This document shows positions 2,766 through 13,545 of a stretch of DNA of 64,000 bases, one piece after another. The stretch covers positions 86,847 to 150,846 of the forward strand of contig JBAJNM010000001.1 of assembly GCA_036881865.1 (NCBI GenBank), read 5' to 3'. How positions within the stretch are numbered: position 1 is the first letter of the stretch; each line of letters opens with the position of its first letter. This DNA is from Parvularculales bacterium. GTDB taxonomy: Bacteria; Pseudomonadota; Alphaproteobacteria; JAPOUT01; JBAJNM01. Both the position numbers and the translations under genes were made by a program. The notes beneath the pieces are model-generated. The model ran no database searches. It was not told where the DNA came from and saw only the letters and a list, made by a program, of their open reading frames with translations.

Positions 2766-5294
2766 ATGAAACTGGATTTTGCGACAACGTCGATGCTGGC
2801 CAATATGGCGCTCAATGAAGTGCCACCGCTGAATACGCTGAGCGCCGATGAGGCGCGGCTGGTTTTTGCTGAGATTTACCGTTCTATGCCACCAGGGCCT
2901 GAAAGCGTCAGTAGCGAAGACATTTCCATTGTCGTTGAGGGCGGCGAAATTCGCGGCCGTATTTTGCGCCCGGCCGATGAAGCGCAAGCCGTAATGATTT
3001 ACTATCATGGCGGCGGCTGGGTGATCGGTAATATTGACGATTATGATTTGGTCGGTCGTCATCTAGCCGAAAAAAACAACGCCATTGTGGTGATGATCGA
3101 TTACCGAAAAAGCCCGGAGCACAAATATCCGGTGCCGATGCGGGATTGCTATGCGGCCTTGAATTGGGTGGAAGATAACCGCACAAAAATCGGTGCTGAC
3201 AATCTGCCGCTGATTGTGGCCGGCGATAGCGCGGGCGGCAATTTATCGGCCGTCATGGCGCAAAAAACCGCCGCTGAAAATGGCCCGAAAATCGACTTGC
3301 AGCTATTGATTTATCCGGTGACGGATGGGCGGATGCAAACCGACAGCTTTACCCATGAGGATAAACAACTGTTCCTGACGGCTGAGTTGATGAGCCATTT
3401 CTGGGATCAATATGCCGATGAAAAACAACGTCTGGAGCCCGAAGCCTCGCCCCTCTTGGCGGGTAATCTGGCGGATGTCGCACCGGCTATTGTGCTGACG
3501 GCAGAGTTCGACATTCTGGTTGATGAAGGCAAAGCCTATGCCGATAAGCTGGATGAAGCTGGTAGGCTAGTTGCTTACAAATGTTTTGAAAGGCAAATGC
3601 ATGGCTTTTTCGCCATGCCGGATGCGCTACCGGTCGGCTTTGAGGCGATGGATTGGGCAACCCACGAAATCGCACGTCATATGGCACCGGTCGAGATGGT
3701 TGATGCGGTGGTGGTCGGAGCCGGCTTTTCCGGTATGTATCAATTGCACAAACTGCGCGAAATGGGCTTGTCAGTGAAAGTGTTTGAGGCAGGCGAAGAT
3801 GTTGGCGGCACCTGGTACTGGAACTGCTATCCCGGCGCCCGGGTTGATATTGAAAGCATGGCTTACTCTTTTTCTTTTTCGAAAGAGCTGGAACAGGACT
3901 GGGTGTGGTCGGAAAAATATTCGCCGCAACCCGAGTTACTGCGCTATGCACAACATGTCGCCGACCGGTTTGACTTAAAGCGTGATATTTCTTTCAACAT
4001 GCGTGTCACCAGCGCACATTTTGACGATGACAATAATGAATGGCTGGTCACTACTGAGTGCGGCAAGCGGGTGCGGGCACGCTTTTTAGTGATGGCCTCT
4101 GGCGTTTTATCAGCTGCCAAAACGCCCGATATTGCCGGTCGTGACAGATTTAAAGGCGAGACCTATAGAACCGGCCTGTGGCCGAAAGAAGGGGTAGATT
4201 TTACCGGCAAGCGTGTGGCCGTAATCGGCACTGGTTCGTCAGCCGTGCAGTCTATCCCGCTGATTGCCGAAGAAGCGGAAGAACTGGTGGTTTATCAGCG
4301 CACCGCTGCCTATTCGACACCGGCGCATAACCGACCTTTGATCAATTCCGAGATTGATACGATGAAGACTAATTATGATGCTTACCGGCAAGAGCAGCGC
4401 CGGACCCCGGCCGGTATTGTCAATCCGGAGCGCATGCCGGAGCGTACCATGGACGTGCCGGAAGAAGAACGTCGGCGGCGCTTTGAGCAAGCCTGGGATG
4501 GCGGGCTGCTAACCGGTCTATCGTCCACCTTCTCCGATATACTGGTTAATGAAGAGGCCAATAATGAAGTGTCGGAGTTTATCGGCGACCGCATTCGCGC
4601 GACCGTGAAAGACAAACAAACGGCGGAGGATTTGACGCCGAAAGCCTATCCTTACGGCACCAAGCGACCCTGTATCGATACGAATTATTACGAGACCTAT
4701 AATCGCGACAATGTCTCTCTGGTTAATTTGCAGCGCACGCCGATTGAGATGTTTACCGAAACGGGCATCAAAACCAGCGATGGATTGCGCGAATTTGATG
4801 CAATTGTTTATGCCACCGGTTTTGACGCCATGACCGGTGCGCTGCTACAGGTCGATATTCGTGGTCGCGGTGGGAGGCGTCTGGTTGATGCGTGGATTAA
4901 CGGGCCACGCTCTTACCTAGGTATTGCCATTCACGGCTTCCCCAATCTGTTCACCATTACCGGCCCATCAAGCCCGTCTGTGCTGTCTAATATGCTGGTA
5001 TCGATTGAGCAGCATGTCAATTGGGTGACCGATTGCATTGGCTGGATGCGCGAAAACGGCAAGACGGCGATTGAGCCGAGCGATGCGGCCGAGTGCGAAT
5101 GGGCAGAACACACTGCGCACCTCGCCAGTATGACCTTATTCCCGAAAGCCGATAGCTGGTATATGGGGGCCAATATGCCGGGCAAACCGCGTATGTTCCT
5201 TGCCTATGTCGGTGGTGTCGGCGCCTATCGGATGATATGCGATCAGGTTGCCGCCAATAATTATTACGGCTGTGAGTTTACACCTAAGGATTAG
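2766..5294 (+). CDS. Fusion protein: N-terminal alpha/beta-hydrolase (HSL-type esterase/lipase) + C-terminal Baeyer-Villiger (flavin-containing) monooxygenase
   Basis: The N-terminal half has YYHGGGWVIGN (HGGG oxyanion motif) and GDSAGGN (GxSxG). The C-terminal half has FAD GxGxxG (VVVGAGFSG), a BVMO fingerprint-like FKGETYRTGLWP, and NADP GxGxxA/G (VIGTGSSA). It is a single uninterrupted 842-aa ORF. Confidence 0.8.
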   Translation: MKLDFATTSMLANMALNEVPPLNTLSADEARLVFAEIYRSMPPGPESVSSEDISIVVEGGEIRGRILRPADEAQAVMIYYHGGGWVIGNIDDYDLVGRHLAEKNNAIVVMIDYRKSPEHKYPVPMRDCYAALNWVEDNRTKIGADNLPLIVAGDSAGGNLSAVMAQKTAAENGPKIDLQLLIYPVTDGRMQTDSFTHEDKQLFLTAELMSHFWDQYADEKQRLEPEASPLLAGNLADVAPAIVLTAEFDILVDEGKAYADKLDEAGRLVAYKCFERQMHGFFAMPDALPVGFEAMDWATHEIARHMAPVEMVDAVVVGAGFSGMYQLHKLREMGLSVKVFEAGEDVGGTWYWNCYPGARVDIESMAYSFSFSKELEQDWVWSEKYSPQPELLRYAQHVADRFDLKRDISFNMRVTSAHFDDDNNEWLVTTECGKRVRARFLVMASGVLSAAKTPDIAGRDRFKGETYRTGLWPKEGVDFTGKRVAVIGTGSSAVQSIPLIAEEAEELVVYQRTAAYSTPAHNRPLINSEIDTMKTNYDAYRQEQRRTPAGIVNPERMPERTMDVPEEERRRRFEQAWDGGLLTGLSSTFSDILVNEEANNEVSEFIGDRIRATVKDKQTAEDLTPKAYPYGTKRPCIDTNYYETYNRDNVSLVNLQRTPIEMFTETGIKTSDGLREFDAIVYATGFDAMTGALLQVDIRGRGGRRLVDAWINGPRSYLGIAIHGFPNLFTITGPSSPSVLSNMLVSIEQHVNWVTDCIGWMRENGKTAIEPSDAAECEWAEHTAHLASMTLFPKADSWYMGANMPGKPRMFLAYVGGVGAYRMICDQVAANNYYGCEFTPKD

Positions 5295-5404
5295 AATCTG
5301 GCACACCATATTCACGAAACGTTACTATTAAGAATTAGAATTTGGCACAGCATCCGGTTTTATCTGGGTCTTTTTGCGCATTAAGAATTAGAAAATTTCC
5401 GGCC
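5289..5404. repeat. Three TTAGAAT-type repeat units (5289-5307, 5327-5351, 5380-5404) forming the left end of the mini-island
   Basis: Units are GGATTAGAATCTGGCACACC / ATTAAGAATTAGAATTTGGCACAGC / ATTAAGAATTAGAAAATTTCCGGCC. Their reverse complements recur at 7850-7907. Confidence 0.6.
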
Positions 5405-5510
5405 ATTTGTTATATAAACCAATAAGTTAGCTAATTAGCCCTTGGTTGTTTGGCACGTTTCCGTTTTGCAACGGCTTTTTGGGAAATTATATACTTGAGG
5501 CCTAATTTTC
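5380..5510. repeat. ~130-bp repeat element copy B
   Basis: Aligns with 591-722. It contains the reverse complement of AAGTATATAATT at 5486-5497. Confidence 0.6.
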
Positions 5511-5988
5511 TTGGAGAACATTATATACACTACTAGGTGCTCATTTTGACGGCTATACCAGCGAGGGGCTGTTGAAAGCAAGCCCTACTTCATGAAGCCA
5601 CTACGATTTCTTCTTCAAGATCTATAGTCGACCTTTGCCGAGAACGGCTATAACCTCAACATTCTGTGCGCCGTCGATACCTTTGATGAAGAGGAAGAAA
5701 TAGATCTCGCCGAGGTACGGGCCGAAATCTGCGCCTGCCTGCGCGACCATCGGAAAAGGTCTATGGGTGTGATGAATCCACGCATCTTCAGCGATAGGAG
5801 GCAGAACGCCCAAAATTTGTGTCAACCATGAGAATCATCACAAGTTTCGCCGTTTTTTTATGCCAATACCATCAACACATACAAAAATTGTGCCAATCAA
5901 AATAATTGTCACAAATTTTGCCATTTTTTGTTACAATGATCGTCAATAGACACAAGTTTGACTCAATTTTGTTACAGAGAGAAAAGCA

Positions 5989-7098
5989 ATGAACACGTCG
6001 TACGCACAACAGTTAAAAGCTCTGCCACCGCAGGTTAACCTTGAAACGGTGGAGGTTTACAAGGCGCTGGCGGCGGCAAATCGAGCTTTGGGGGAGTTGA
6101 AAGGCAAGGCTTTGACCCTCCCCAATCAGAACATTCTAATTGATACGCTGTTCTTGCAGGAAGCGCTGGCCAGCTCCGAGATTGAAAATATAGTAACTAC
6201 CCAAGACGAAGTATTTCGGGCGGACCTATTCGCTGATACAGGCCCCGTGGAAGCCAAAGAGGTCACCCGCTACCGTGATGCCATGAAACTAGGTTATAAC
6301 TCATGGTGCGAAAACGGTTTTATCAGCGAGAACATGTTGATTGAGATGTTTCGCATCCTCAAACAGCGCAATGACGGATATCGCACAACGCCCGGCACGG
6401 TGCTACGCAATGCGCGGGGGGAAACGGTCTATACGCCGCCGCAAGATGCACAAGATATTGTGCGGCTGATGCGCGATTTGGAAGCCTTCATTAACGCAGA
6501 ACCGGACGATCTGGACCCGCTCATCCGCATGGCGCTCATCCATCATCAATTTGAAAGTATACACCCCTTCCCAGACGGTAACGGACGGGTAGGGCGGATG
6601 CTGAATGTGTTGTATCTGACCCACGCAGGTTTGCTGGATGCGCCCATTTTATATTTAAGCCGCGCCATTAACCACACCAAACCCGATTACTACCTTCTAT
6701 TGCGGGCAGTGCGCAACGAAGGCGTATGGCAAGAATGGGTTATCTATATGCTTGATGCAGTGACGGAAACGGCATTCTCCACCCTGCGTTTGGTGGAAGG
6801 CATACGTGATTTGATGCGCCAGACTAAGATTCGCTTGCGTGAAGAAGGACTCTACACGCAGGAATTGTTAAACAATCTGTTTCGCCATCCCTATACGCGC
6901 ATAGCTCCTGTCGCGCGAGATTTGAGGGTCCACTACAACACTGCCGCCAGCCGTCTGAAACAATTAGCCACCAAGGGCTTTGTTCAAGAGGTGAGAGAGG
7001 GGCGGAATAATTATTACATCAACGAACCTTTGGTAGCCTTGTTCGTAAGCGTATCAGGAGACGATAATCTGCAGGAGCATGATAAAAAAAGGTCCTGA
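5989..7098 (+). CDS. fic: Fic family protein (Fic/DOC; AMPylase-type), class II with intramolecular inhibitory motif
   Basis: Fic motif HPFPDGNGRVGR is present. The inhibitory [S/T]xxxE[G/N] motif (SSEIEN) lies N-terminal of the core. The C-terminus has a wHTH-like tail. Confidence 0.85.
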   Translation: MNTSYAQQLKALPPQVNLETVEVYKALAAANRALGELKGKALTLPNQNILIDTLFLQEALASSEIENIVTTQDEVFRADLFADTGPVEAKEVTRYRDAMKLGYNSWCENGFISENMLIEMFRILKQRNDGYRTTPGTVLRNARGETVYTPPQDAQDIVRLMRDLEAFINAEPDDLDPLIRMALIHHQFESIHPFPDGNGRVGRMLNVLYLTHAGLLDAPILYLSRAINHTKPDYYLLLRAVRNEGVWQEWVIYMLDAVTETAFSTLRLVEGIRDLMRQTKIRLREEGLYTQELLNNLFRHPYTRIAPVARDLRVHYNTAASRLKQLATKGFVQEVREGRNNYYINEPLVALFVSVSGDDNLQEHDKKRS

Positions 7099-7133
7099 AG
7101 ATACAAAAATATTATCTAAAAGAGGGCGACTCG

Positions 7134-7385
7134 ATGAGAAAAAACTATGCACAGGAGTATATTAATAACCTCGTATCTGAAGGCCGATATTGTGTATCAA
7201 CCGAGGGAGCGCGGGAAACTCTGGGCGTCACCACAGATACCATCAGGAATGCGCTTTTTTGGTGGTGTGTCGCTATAGCAGTATTTGAACTGGTCCTCTA
7301 TACGGGAGTTTTGGGCGGTCTGGCTTTCATTGTTGCCCCGCATATTGTCTCCTCTTTCATCCTCACTCTGCCTCAGGTATCTTGA
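7134..7385 (+). CDS. small hypothetical protein: N-terminal wHTH-like segment + C-terminal transmembrane helix
   Basis: A good RBS (AGAGGG) sits 8 nt upstream of the ATG. The C-terminal hydrophobic stretch is WWCVAIAVFELVLYTGVLGGLAFIV. The ORF is 83 aa. Confidence 0.4.
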   Translation: MRKNYAQEYINNLVSEGRYCVSTEGARETLGVTTDTIRNALFWWCVAIAVFELVLYTGVLGGLAFIVAPHIVSSFILTLPQVS

Positions 7386-7843
7386 AGCAAACGATGGCTA
7401 ACGTAGATACTTCGCACGGATATTTTGGTATTCGAATACCGAAGATTGAATTTTCTGAATGGTACGCACGGGATGATGTAAAAAACAATCCTCATAGAAA
7501 CCAACCAGGGGTTTATATTATTGCGCGATTTGTTCATAAACCAGAAGGAACGGCAGATTATAATGCGAAAGAAATACTGTGCGTTGGTGAAACGACGAGG
7601 GATATTCACACACGGTTGAAGCAGTTTTTCAGAGCAGCTAAAAACGGAAAAACAAATCACAATCCGGGTAAAAAATTTTTTCGAAAATTCTCTGGTAATC
7701 TTGACAATATTTACGTTGCTAGTTTTTCACCTGAGCTTGAGGAAGAACATTGTCTGGACCCCTTTATTCGTTACCTAGAGCGTAAGTTAATCTTGGAATA
7801 TGCCATTAAGCACGGCTCGATTCCATTTTGTAACAGTGAGTGA
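7382..7843 (+). CDS. GIY-YIG nuclease domain-like protein (start TTG 7382 or ATG 7394)
   Basis: GVYII ... ILCVGETTRDIHTRLKQFF resembles the UvrC-type GIY..YVGKAxDLRKRLxxYF block with an insertion. The downstream E..LILEY...N block is also present. Confidence 0.45.
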   Translation: MKQTMANVDTSHGYFGIRIPKIEFSEWYARDDVKNNPHRNQPGVYIIARFVHKPEGTADYNAKEILCVGETTRDIHTRLKQFFRAAKNGKTNHNPGKKFFRKFSGNLDNIYVASFSPELEEEHCLDPFIRYLERKLILEYAIKHGSIPFCNSE

Positions 7844-7849
7844 ATATGG

Positions 7850-7907
7850 ATTCTAATCCTTAATGGTAAAATTCTAGTTCTTAATAGTAAATTCTAATTC
7901 TTAGCTA
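7850..7907. repeat. Three tandem ~21-bp repeats (ATTCTAATCCTTAATGG / ATTCTAGTTCTTAATAG / ATTCTAATTCTTAGCTA) forming the right end of the island
   Basis: They are the reverse complement of the left-end units. Exact 13-mers TAAGAATTAGAAT and TAAGGATTAGAAT are shared. Confidence 0.6.
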
Positions 7908-7934
7908 TAAACGACAACGGCTTTGTTTCTTAGG

Positions 7935-8010
7935 TGGTGGAGCCGAGGGGAATCGAACCCCTGACCTCAGCATTGCGAACGCTGCGCTCTCCCAACTGAG
8001 CTACGGCCCC
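7935..8010 (-). tRNA. tRNA-Ala (anticodon CGC)
   Basis: Reverse complement is GGGGCCGTAGCTCAGTTGGGAGAGCGCAGCGTTCGCAATGCTGAGGTCAGGGGTTCGATTCCCCTCGGCTCCACCA. It folds as a cloverleaf with a G3:U70 Ala identity pair, anticodon loop TTCGCAA, and an encoded CCA. Confidence 0.9.
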
Positions 8011-11845: not shown

Positions 11846-12199
11846 TCACTTCTTACCCGCCATCGTCCGTATAACCCCCGCCACATGTTTTAAGGCCGTC
11901 GGAGTTAGTTTCGGAAGCAACAGGGCGACCCGCCACTGTTGGGGCGTCAGAGGGTTCTTCACCGTTCCGATGGCAGGCTCTAGAATGTCTCCGACCGGTA
12001 CGCCGTAAATTCCGGCAATCTTTATAAGCCGGTCCAGAGGGATGGTTCCCTTGCCATGCTCGTAATTATGGAGTTGCGAGGTTCCTATACCCAGTTTTCC
12101 CACCACCTGACTCAATGTCAGGTCAAGAGCCTCCCGGTGCTCCTGGAGCAGGTGGCCGATCTCCTTGTCAATGGCTTTTTGGTTTTTCGTCTTTTTCAT
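11846..12199 (-). CDS. XRE-family helix-turn-helix transcriptional regulator
   Basis: 117 aa. The HTH segment is LSQVVGKLGIGTSQLHNYEHGKGTIPLDRLIKIAGIYGVPVGDIL. Confidence 0.7.
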   Translation of the reverse strand: MKKTKNQKAIDKEIGHLLQEHREALDLTLSQVVGKLGIGTSQLHNYEHGKGTIPLDRLIKIAGIYGVPVGDILEPAIGTVKNPLTPQQWRVALLLPKLTPTALKHVAGVIRTMAGKK

Positions 12200-12299
12200 C
12201 GTCGTCCAGTTTCTCCACGGGGGGAACCAGTATCACCTCGCGGGCGAATTTCGCCATGTCGTCCAGCGTCGGCAGATCGTCTTTGTCATCGTCTCTCAT
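12168..12299 (-). CDS. Possible 43-aa highly acidic small ORF overlapping the start of the XRE gene
   Basis: Minus-strand ATG at 12299 gives MRDDDKDDLPTLDDMAKFAREVILVPPVEKLDDDEKDEKPKSH. This is not in the ORF track because it is under 60 aa. Confidence 0.2.
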   Translation of the reverse strand: MRDDDKDDLPTLDDMAKFAREVILVPPVEKLDDDEKDEKPKSH

Positions 12300-12368
12300 C
12301 TGATGTTCCCTTCTTGCTCTGTTACTTTTGAGCAAACTATTACATTATTAGAAACCTCAATCTATGTC

Positions 12369-12809
12369 TCAATGATACTGGGATTCTTGAAGCAACCAGT
12401 AGACTTCGGTGTCTTTAAGATCTTCATTGTCCTGTGCCCGCTCAAAAGGTGTTTTTCCTTTTTTGTCCTTCGCTTGCGGATCGGCACCATTTTTCAGCAA
12501 AGATTCCAATACCTCTGGGTGTTTGCTCCCTGTTTCCGCTACATGAAGAGGCGTTAAACCACCCTCAGAACGGGCCTCTATATCTGCACCATGTTCCAGT
12601 AGCAGTTTTACCACCGCTGGTGTTTCGCTGTAGCCTGTCGCAAAATGCAAAGGCGTAGCACCACCCTCAAGAGCAGCCTCTACATCGACCACGGTGGCTG
12701 TCTTCCAAAATGTGTCACTTAGTAACACATTATCCTCTTGTGCATGAAGTGTAACTGGTGCGTAGACCAGTAAAAACTGTACGCAAAGGAAAGCGGTTAT
12801 TGGTTTCAT
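12369..12809 (-). CDS. Secreted ankyrin-repeat protein (paralog A)
   Basis: Signal peptide, the family N-motif NVLLSDTFWKTATVVDVEAAL, TPLH ankyrin repeats, and a C-terminal ..LLQESQYH. Confidence 0.8.
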   Translation of the reverse strand: MKPITAFLCVQFLLVYAPVTLHAQEDNVLLSDTFWKTATVVDVEAALEGGATPLHFATGYSETPAVVKLLLEHGADIEARSEGGLTPLHVAETGSKHPEVLESLLKNGADPQAKDKKGKTPFERAQDNEDLKDTEVYWLLQESQYH

Positions 12810-12860
12810 GTTATTCCCGAACGCCAGTTATTTTATCATTTTCACAATAGCTCAAAAATA

Positions 12861-13358
12861 CTAATATCCTACAACTCCAAGAATTACATCAAAGTCCAAC
12901 AACTGTTTATAACGTTGCAATTCCTTGACTACATCTTTCTGAGTTACAAGGCTAAATCCAGCAACTTTGCCTAATGTTTCATTTGAAATTGCAAAAGCCG
13001 CCGGTATACCAACAGATTTCGCTAATTCTCTGAATTCCTTTTTACATCTTTTAGTTAGAGTGCTTGTCTGCAAATCCGAAACATCTTTACCTAGGGCCCC
13101 CATGAGGGTTTTATCAACAGGGGTTATCACCCCTTTAATTTCTGGGTGTTGTGCAAAAGCCAGAACAAACCATTTCATCAACGAGTTTTTTTCTTGCTCG
13201 TTAATAGAATGAAATATGCAGGAAGATAGCTTTTCGGTAGGTGTTTGTGAATATGCAGGAGAGTTTGATAGCAACAACGTGCTTAATAGAAATAATGAGA
13301 TAAAAACGGCTTCTATCGTTGTTTTGTTTTTAATCATGAATATTTTTCCTCTTCTCAT
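12861..13358 (-). CDS. Hypothetical secreted protein (signal peptide), AT-rich gene
   Basis: 165 aa with an N-terminal hydrophobic leader (AVFISLFLLSTLLLS) and no recognisable domain. Its composition is foreign-looking. Confidence 0.45.
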   Translation of the reverse strand: MRRGKIFMIKNKTTIEAVFISLFLLSTLLLSNSPAYSQTPTEKLSSCIFHSINEQEKNSLMKWFVLAFAQHPEIKGVITPVDKTLMGALGKDVSDLQTSTLTKRCKKEFRELAKSVGIPAAFAISNETLGKVAGFSLVTQKDVVKELQRYKQLLDFDVILGVVGY

Positions 13359-13545
13359 TGTGGGACGTTTATGCTGATTGTTCGCCAGAGGCGATTAAAT
13401 TTCCTTCAAAGTAGCAACTCTCCCACGGAAGTTTACTCATGTAAGATGCTCCTTAGAGAAATAACATGATTGAAGCATACTGCGATTACCAATACTCAAA
13501 ACCGGTAAAAACGGGGTGAAGCAAGGTTTATTACGGTTTGGTCAC

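Follow-up and report, generated by a model that had tools for sequence, protein, structure and literature searches.

A putative transposase-less mini-transposon with Tn7-like ends carries a SoFic-family Fic gene and other mosaic cargo next to a tRNA-Ala gene in a Parvularculales bacterium

We analyzed a 64,000-nucleotide (nt) stretch of DNA from a Parvularculales bacterium (contig JBAJNM010000001.1 of assembly GCA_036881865.1, positions 86,847 to 150,846), which is called the window throughout. The analysis concerns three adjacent genes at positions 5989 to 7843 of the window, which encode a Fic protein, an 83-amino-acid (aa) protein, and a GIY-YIG-type protein. An earlier reading of the sequence (the original prediction) had taken them for one uncharacterized three-gene system. 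Our results suggest a different picture: the region is probably a mini-transposon that is non-autonomous and has Tn7-like ends, and its cargo is a mosaic that includes a SoFic-family Fic protein.

RESULTS

A bounded 2,646-bp insertion lies next to a tRNA-Ala gene

The element comprises 2,646 bp (5271 to 7916) and is enclosed by two identical copies of the pentanucleotide ACGGC, located at 5266 to 5270 and at 7917 to 7921. At the left border, ACGGC directly precedes the terminal sequence 5′-TGTGAG; at the right border, CGACA directly precedes the second ACGGC. The borders thus consist of TGT/ACA termini (5271 to 5273 and 7914 to 7916) and a 5-bp direct repeat corresponding to a target-site duplication.

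Inside the termini, we found a repeated 25-nt site with the consensus GTTTACTATTAAGAATTAGAATTTG. Three plus-strand copies are located in the left end (5271 to 5400), namely L1 (5276 to 5300), L2 (5320 to 5344), and L3 (5373 to 5397). Three minus-strand copies make up the right end (7847 to 7916), namely R3 (7847 to 7871), R2 (7868 to 7892), and R1 (7888 to 7912). The left-end sites are dispersed, with start-to-start distances of 44 and 53 nt, and the right-end sites are contiguous, with distances of 21 and 20 nt. No further site of this type scoring above 14 bits was detected in the 64-kb window.

The insertion interrupts a host gene encoding an esterase/Baeyer-Villiger monooxygenase fusion (2766 to 5294, plus strand), whose last codons were replaced by the element. 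The present C-terminus, YYGCEFTPKD, is encoded by the left end of the element; the native one would be YYGFVS. When 5271 to 7916 and one copy of ACGGC were excised in silico, AAT AAT TAT TAC GGC was joined to TTT GTT TCT TAG. This restored the C-terminus AANNYYGFVS followed by a stop codon, which aligns with AAKGYEGFV of phenylacetone monooxygenase (PAMO) up to residue 540/542. The host reading frame would break unless one repeat copy was also removed. The restored C-terminus thus independently confirms that 2,646 bp were inserted and 5 bp duplicated. The fusion protein itself has 842 aa, with an N-terminal alpha/beta-hydrolase part (esterase/lipase-like) and a type I Baeyer-Villiger monooxygenase part (PAMO-like, 1e-182).

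The duplicated target is located 13 nt from the 3′ end of an intact tRNA-Ala(CGC) gene (7935 to 8010, minus strand), and the tightly packed end of the element faces this tRNA, which is the probable landmark of the attachment site. In an Rfam scan of the island, only the tRNA was found. It also gave a marginal tmRNA match (48 bits at a gathering threshold of 47), which we attribute to a cross-hit of the tRNA-like domain and not to a tmRNA gene.

The original prediction had described an island adjacent to a tRNA and devoid of a recombinase. This description was accurate, but it missed the nature of the island, namely, a transposon insertion that has defined borders and a target-site duplication.

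About 400 bp of the element interior (5401 to 5812) contained no recognizable gene in open reading frame (ORF) and family searches. Two minus-strand ORFs in this part (5435 to 5581, 48 aa; 5622 to 5825, 67 aa) had no Pfam or family match. This gene-free stretch (5401 to 5830) may be debris of lost genes, such as a transposition module.

The ends resemble those of Tn7-like transposons

Tn7-like elements generate 5-bp duplications, and their TnsD-type proteins direct insertion to positions downstream of tRNA genes, at a short and fixed distance (PMC9881144). The window element shares with them TGT...ACA ends, the 5-bp duplication, asymmetric arrays of approximately 20- to 25-nt sites, and a position shortly downstream of a tRNA gene with the packed end proximal (PMC9881144). 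Moreover, Tn7-like transposons are known carriers of defense cargo, and the cargo here is also of the defense type. In contrast to Tn7-like elements, the window element lacks tnsA, tnsB, tnsC, and tniQ genes and is only 2.6 kb long. In addition, its distance from target to tRNA is 13 nt, compared with 29 ± 1 bp in cyanobacterial Tn7-like examples (PMC9881144).

Lacking tnsB, tnsC, and tniQ, the element is not classed as a Tn7-like transposon proper, but as a non-autonomous element with Tn7-like ends. Since it contains no transposition genes, it was either moved in trans or is a stripped derivative. By analogy, the repeats are candidate transposase-binding sites, and the position beside the tRNA, a single occurrence, would fit site-specific insertion.

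Several observations weigh against this assignment. No transposase with matching ends was found in the element or among 10 large ORFs of the window, all of which are housekeeping genes. A metagenome scan for paired end-sites returned three hits, all unrelated repeats: one was a TAAGAAT microsatellite and two were low-GC contigs (36 to 39%), and only the short repeat was common to them and the island. The two ends are also not exactly alike, their spacings from the terminal TGT to the first site being 1 nt apart in length. Finally, the choice of a Tn7-like over a Mu-, IS21-, or Tn5053-type origin is drawn by analogy from architecture and position. The right end of the element had no match in PLSDB.

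The ends could thus stem from another DDE family with multisite termini and 5-bp duplications, such as Mu-like, IS21-like, or Tn5053/Tn402-like elements, a reading we consider rather unlikely but worth keeping in mind. These families have in common TG...CA ends, duplications of 5 bp, and several subterminal sites, and Mu likewise has one dispersed and one contiguous end. This reading also accords with the failure to find a tnsB, tnsC, or tniQ gene in the element and the 10 large ORFs. However, insertion is nearly random for Mu and IS21 and is directed to res sites for Tn5053. A location a short, fixed distance downstream of a tRNA gene, with the contiguous end proximal, is instead the hallmark of TnsD/TniQ-directed Tn7-like elements (PMC9881144).

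We regard it as most improbable that the island is a decayed tRNA-targeting integrative element of the tyrosine-recombinase type that has lost its integrase. In favor of such an element, the island adjoins the 3′ end of a tRNA and has repeated arm-like sites on both sides; furthermore, the closest relative of the GIY-YIG gene (see below) resides in an island with integrase, AlpA, and Prim-Pol genes. Yet no direct repeat of the tRNA 3′ end was detected at the far border, the best match being one of 10 nt that lies elsewhere, at an unrelated position. Moreover, the tRNA has remained intact, with the junction 13 nt outside it. The inverted-repeat borders, the TGT/ACA termini, the 5-bp duplication, and the restoration of the host gene upon excision also speak against an integrase-mediated event.

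The element carries three tightly packed genes

The cargo genes are all on the plus strand. The fic gene (5989 to 7098) encodes 369 aa and was recognized by its ORF and by profile, structure-alignment, and motif matches. After a gap of 35 nt, it is followed by the 83-aa ORF (7134 to 7385). The third gene (7382 to 7843) encodes 153 aa if translation starts at TTG 7382, in which case it overlaps the 83-aa ORF by 4 nt. If it starts at ATG 7394, as in the GenBank annotation in a Parvularculales metagenome-assembled genome, it encodes 149 aa and the two ORFs are 8 nt apart. The presence, common direction, and tight packing of the three ORFs thus agree with the original prediction. The GC content and the GC content at third codon positions (GC3) were 0.507 and 0.578 for fic, 0.472 and 0.464 for the 83-aa ORF, and 0.389 and 0.327 for the GIY-YIG gene.

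A promoter-like site was detected upstream of fic (5908 to 5937), and no internal terminator was found between the three genes. The surrounding region (5813 to 5976) contains three 32-nt direct repeats (starting at 5833, 5904, and 5945) and a cluster of the motif CACAANTTT. Five of the seven copies of this motif in the 64-kb window fall at 5813 to 5959, in both orientations, within the 176 bp upstream of fic.

The Fic protein is a member of the SoFic family

Pfam profiles identified Fic_N (7.8e-27, residues 25 to 103), Fic (2.8e-17), and SoFic-like_C (8.9e-17) domains in the Fic protein, which thus has a C-terminal winged helix-turn-helix (wHTH). The SoFic model of PADLOC matched residues 8 to 352 at 3.8e-113. 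End-to-end alignments with the crystal structures of SoFic and E. coli Sofic scored 1e-70 to 1e-75, and the SoFic chains of the PDB aligned over residues 18 to 354 at 1e-70. The catalytic motif HPFPDGNGRVGR is located at residues 192 to 203 and fits HxFx(D/E)GNGRxxR. The inhibitory motif SSEIEN (residues 62 to 67) fits (S/T)xxxE(G/N) and lies in the same polypeptide, N-terminal to the Fic core and within the Fic_N match. The predicted class II architecture with an N-terminal inhibitory helix was thus corroborated, and profile searches of the kind that had been proposed as a check recovered the Fic domains.

Judged by these matches, the protein is a full-length class II Fic of the SoFic family and hence a known kind of protein. 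Since it scored 340 bits against the NCBIfam SoFic equivalog, whose cut-off is 550, it is a member of the SoFic family and not an ortholog. More than 7,999 relatives were found below 1e-30; the best was 71% identical, and the identity to E. coli Sofic was approximately 43%. With SoFic of Shewanella oneidensis (PDB 3EQX/3ZCN) and E. coli Sofic (9VJC), the window protein shares the domain order Fic_N, Fic, and SoFic-like wHTH and the canonical HxFx(D/E)GNGRxxR motif, and the inhibitory motif of SoFic (aa 69 to 74) is identical to its SSEIEN. Unlike SoFic, the window fic gene rides on a mini-transposon and has two unrelated small genes downstream.

SoFic is a class II Fic protein that works as an anti-phage system made up of one protein and is toxic in E. 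coli (PMC12249575). In a passage of that report, contact of its C-terminal wHTH with the catalytic domain is described as needed for toxicity (PMC12249575). SoFic of E. coli H397 is neutralized by AS1, a 47-aa protein encoded directly downstream, which was not obtained in soluble form (PMC12249575). Further, SoFic modifies EF-Tu by AMPylation and, within 100 bp of the start codon, binds to its own promoter (bioRxiv 10.64898/2026.07.09.737422).

Because SoFic was reported to bind its own promoter, we consider the repeat cluster at 5813 to 5976 a candidate operator. By analogy, the CACAANTTT copies would probably be bound by the C-terminal wHTH of Fic, and the AT-rich, repeat-bearing region upstream of fic is consistent with autoregulation of the SoFic type.

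The 83-aa protein is an orphan

For the 83-aa protein, a word-index search of 5.8 billion protein clusters returned only the protein itself. Its residues 5 to 42 matched the N-terminal wHTH of AbiEi in PADLOC at 1.3e-4 and 7.2e-4, over these 38 residues only. An hhalign comparison aligned residues 3 to 42 weakly (E 0.045) with the first helices of the C-terminal wHTH of Fic (residues 287 to 324). Residues 40 to 80 are hydrophobic. Single-sequence AlphaFold2 (AF2) modeling yielded helices at 4 to 15, 23 to 30, and 34 to 78, with a predicted local distance difference test (pLDDT) score of 77 and without a wing, and a Foldseek search with this model found no structural neighbors. Accordingly, of the small wHTH-like membrane protein that had been proposed, the weakly HTH-like N-terminus and the hydrophobic C-terminal helix were recovered, but the wing was not.

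A Shine-Dalgarno sequence, AGAGGG, is located eight nt upstream of the ATG. A T7 homopolymer run (7254 to 7260) sits where the HTH similarity ends, and past this run, the other two frames contain no AbiEi- or Fic-like continuation. Direct reading of the 83-aa sequence revealed no (S/T)xxxE(G/N) motif.

The protein may have a genuine local role, as a regulator or antitoxin, or may be a remnant. We find it possible, albeit on the unlikely side, that the ORF is nonfunctional and represents a remnant of an AbiEi-like or Fic-C-terminal-domain-like wHTH gene, the frame of which runs into non-native hydrophobic sequence. Its orphan status and the empty structural search are in line with this, as is the fact that both similarities end exactly past the recognition helix, with no wing, at the T7 run. 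Against a remnant stand the good ribosome-binding site, the precise abutment on the next gene, and the lack of a continuation in the other frames. Also, the 149-aa ORF has no AbiEi match in PADLOC, and the element is devoid of a gene for an AbiEii nucleotidyltransferase.

It is doubtful, although conceivable, that the 83-aa protein is the antitoxin of Fic, so that the two genes would make up a toxin/antitoxin pair like SoFic-AS1, with the GIY-YIG gene as an unrelated passenger. In both cases, a small ORF is found immediately downstream of a SoFic-type gene, and the encoded protein is half hydrophobic (83-aa protein) or hard to solubilize (AS1), AS1 being the precedent for neutralization of Sofic toxicity from this position (E. 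coli H397; PMC12249575). The good Shine-Dalgarno sequence is compatible with such a role. The same holds for the weak alignment of the N-terminus with the wHTH of Fic, whose contact with the catalytic domain matters for toxicity according to the passage mentioned above (PMC12249575). However, the protein differs from AS1 in its length (83 versus 47 aa) and its HTH-like head. Among the five closest Fic relatives, no small ORF is conserved downstream. Nor is there an equivalent, such as a 47-aa ORF of the AS1 type, at two E. coli Fic loci, each of which lies in the Flag-2 region and has a convergent gene. Besides, the similarities to HTH domains are only weak, with E values of 0.045 and 1.3e-4, and the motif of class I Fic antitoxins is missing.

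Membership in two known systems was considered and rejected. The locus does not correspond to a class I Fic toxin-antitoxin system (FicT/FicA, VbhT/VbhA), because the 83-aa sequence lacks (S/T)xxxE(G/N) and Fic has its own inhibitory helix. It also does not belong to AbiE (the AbiEi/AbiEii type IV toxin-antitoxin system): despite the resemblance of its first approximately 40 residues to the AbiEi N-terminal wHTH, the 83-aa protein lacks the AbiEi C-terminal domain, the element lacks an AbiEii nucleotidyltransferase, and the downstream protein is of the GIY-YIG type instead.

The third gene encodes a member of a rare GIY-YIG family

A word-index homologue search with the 149-aa protein returned only the protein itself. 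In contrast, a full HMMER scan of 1.84 billion representatives detected 300 relatives at E ≤ 1e-3, including 121 with E ≤ 1e-10; nearly all of the relatives are stand-alone proteins of 135 to 160 aa. In a 50-sequence alignment, W23, G39, Y41, G65, R74, F78, H89, and N147 were invariant, and E129 was kept in 49 of the 50 sequences. The YIG tyrosine is present in 45 of the 50 relatives; the window copy has Cys63 at this position, and its catalytic competence is therefore uncertain.

The GIY-YIG profile PF01541 scored 14.6 bits against the protein, below the gathering threshold of 22.6; 12 of the 50 relatives matched it, all weakly. NCBIfam provided no match. The AF2 model had a pLDDT of 94 and a predicted template modeling score (pTM) of 0.87, and a Foldseek search with it led to GIY-YIG families with weak E-values. 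By hhalign, the YIG position, R74, and H89 fall on Y17, R27, and H40 of I-TevI. From the model, we are confident that the 149-aa protein carries the GIY-YIG alpha/beta core fold. Thus, structure prediction supported the original proposal of a GIY-YIG fold with an insertion, the latter being reflected in a GIY-to-YIG spacing enlarged to 22 residues.

This spacing distinguishes the family from the named GIY-YIG nucleases T4 endonuclease II (DenA, 2WSH), R.Eco29kI (3MX4), the I-TevI catalytic domain (1LN0), and the UvrC N-terminal domain (1YCZ). In addition, it has no attached DNA-binding domain and possesses its own invariant N-terminal F..W motif and GHSGG loop, and in the window copy, Cys replaces the YIG tyrosine. 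Judging from the searches, the family is rare (approximately 300 sequence clusters across distant phyla), has no curated model, and is uncharacterized. It most likely comprises metal-dependent DNA nickases or endonucleases, and the window copy may be attenuated, given its YIG tyrosine replacement. Searches of the PLSDB plasmids and of GenBank phages gave no match to the protein or its family.

The closest relative (50% identity; locus L003, 5001 to 8850) is convergent with a Lamassu operon 17 nt away, whose LmuB and LmuC matched at 5.3e-77 and 5.6e-18. This locus is inside the integrase/AlpA/Prim-Pol island mentioned above. A few family members deviate from the stand-alone form. In one (P0217), the GIY-YIG-like domain comes after regions 2 and 4 of an ECF sigma-70 factor; another (P0131) contains two tandem domain copies, and several (e.g., P0124) have N-terminal extensions of 60 to 120 aa without a Pfam match.

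The three genes do not recur together at related loci

We compared the gene neighborhoods of seven Fic loci, namely the five closest relatives (66 to 71% identity) and two from E. coli, and of 16 GIY-YIG-family loci; a genome scan with a narrower alignment (A2) gave 12 loci. None of the seven Fic loci had an 83-aa-like or GIY-YIG-like neighbor, and none of the 16 GIY-YIG-family loci contained a homologue of Fic or of the 83-aa protein. Two Fic relatives (L001 and L023) were alone amid housekeeping genes, two others (L002 and L024) lay between the hsdM and hsdS genes of type I restriction-modification operons, and a further one (L025) adjoined an AAA_14 ATPase gene. In L024, Bro-N and RhuM/Fic genes accompanied the Fic relative. 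The 16 GIY-YIG-family loci shared no neighbor. Their surroundings included genes for RtcB, an RF-1-domain protein, NYN, HNH, and Exo_endo_phos proteins, a flavodoxin, a metallophosphoesterase, and many unknown proteins.

Because co-occurrence was absent from the 7 and 16 loci and because the GC3 values differ sharply, the three genes appear to be mosaic cargo and not a conserved three-part system. The proposal of one uncharacterized three-gene system, in which Fic acts together with the 83-aa membrane/HTH protein and a GIY-YIG nuclease as an integrated toxin-antitoxin or abortive-infection unit, was thus not borne out, and the three-gene order was not conserved at these loci. We judge such a unit to be very unlikely. 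It could explain why the genes are co-directional and closely spaced, why a single promoter-like region lies upstream and no terminator-like site within, and why all three are on one mobile cassette; the closest GIY-YIG relative also adjoins a defense system, Lamassu. These points are outweighed by the missing co-occurrence, the orphan status of the 83-aa protein, the heterogeneous neighbors of the GIY-YIG family, and the strong GC3 differences. Moreover, SoFic acts as a single gene (PMC12249575), and the catalytic YIG tyrosine is replaced in the window copy. What does hold from the original prediction is the defense or toxin flavor of the locus, in that Fic falls within the SoFic family, already described as a defense toxin.

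Two considerations temper the interpretation as mosaic cargo. Tight packing, one plausible promoter, and no internal terminator are compatible with functional coupling in one organism. Further, the arrangement is known from one genome, and a lack of co-conservation may also be compatible with a young, lineage-specific partnership.

A more elaborate model would combine all parts of the locus in a trans-mobilizable defense cassette, the three genes of which act jointly in this lineage. According to it, the element is a transposase-less mini-transposon that uses tRNA-homing Tn7-like machinery, the Fic toxin is tuned by the 83-aa protein as a membrane-tethered wHTH mimic (an AS1-like antitoxin), and the miniature GIY-YIG protein is a second effector. 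We give this model little credence.

Other features of the window

A second low-GC patch (38 to 43% GC) is located at 11846 to 13400. It contains minus-strand ORFs for an XRE-type HTH protein (11846 to 12199) and a secreted ankyrin-repeat-like protein (12369 to 12809), as well as a 165-aa ORF whose N-terminus resembles a signal peptide. Outside this patch, an ankyrin-repeat protein of 309 aa is encoded at 26181 to 27110. The ankyrin repeats hint at a host-associated lifestyle, for example, that of a sponge symbiont.

DISCUSSION

We propose that a 2,646-bp element was inserted 13 nt from the 3′ end of tRNA-Ala, within the last codons of a monooxygenase gene. Its ends would be of Tn7-like architecture or, more broadly, belong to the Mu/Tn7 superfamily, and it presumably was mobilized in trans or is a stripped derivative. 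The three cargo genes would have been acquired independently of one another, and a single promoter upstream of fic probably drives them all. By homology, Fic would be a dimeric AMP-transferase that is restrained by its own inhibitory glutamate E66 in SSEIEN. When unleashed in phage infection, it would AMPylate a host target and stop growth, resulting in abortive infection. In S. oneidensis, the target of SoFic is switch I of EF-Tu (bioRxiv 10.64898/2026.07.09.737422). The C-terminal wHTH of Fic probably mediates autoregulation via the upstream CACAANTTT cluster. The lineage-specific 83-aa protein could be a local modulator or antitoxin of Fic, positionally like AS1, or else the product of a decaying or fortuitous ORF. 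The third gene would represent an uncharacterized family of stand-alone GIY-YIG proteins of approximately 140 aa, most likely metal-dependent DNA nickases or endonucleases.

The locus does not reveal a new multigene defense system, but it offers three modest leads. The element is a clean natural case of a tiny, transposase-less element with Tn7-type ends and only defense-type cargo at a tRNA site, and as such it bears on the spread of defense genes and on what such elements minimally require at their ends. In view of the recent report on the AS1 antitoxin, the small ORF that follows a SoFic-type toxin gene here is also of interest. Finally, since its two closest members adjoin SoFic and Lamassu, the small GIY-YIG family is worth biochemical attention.

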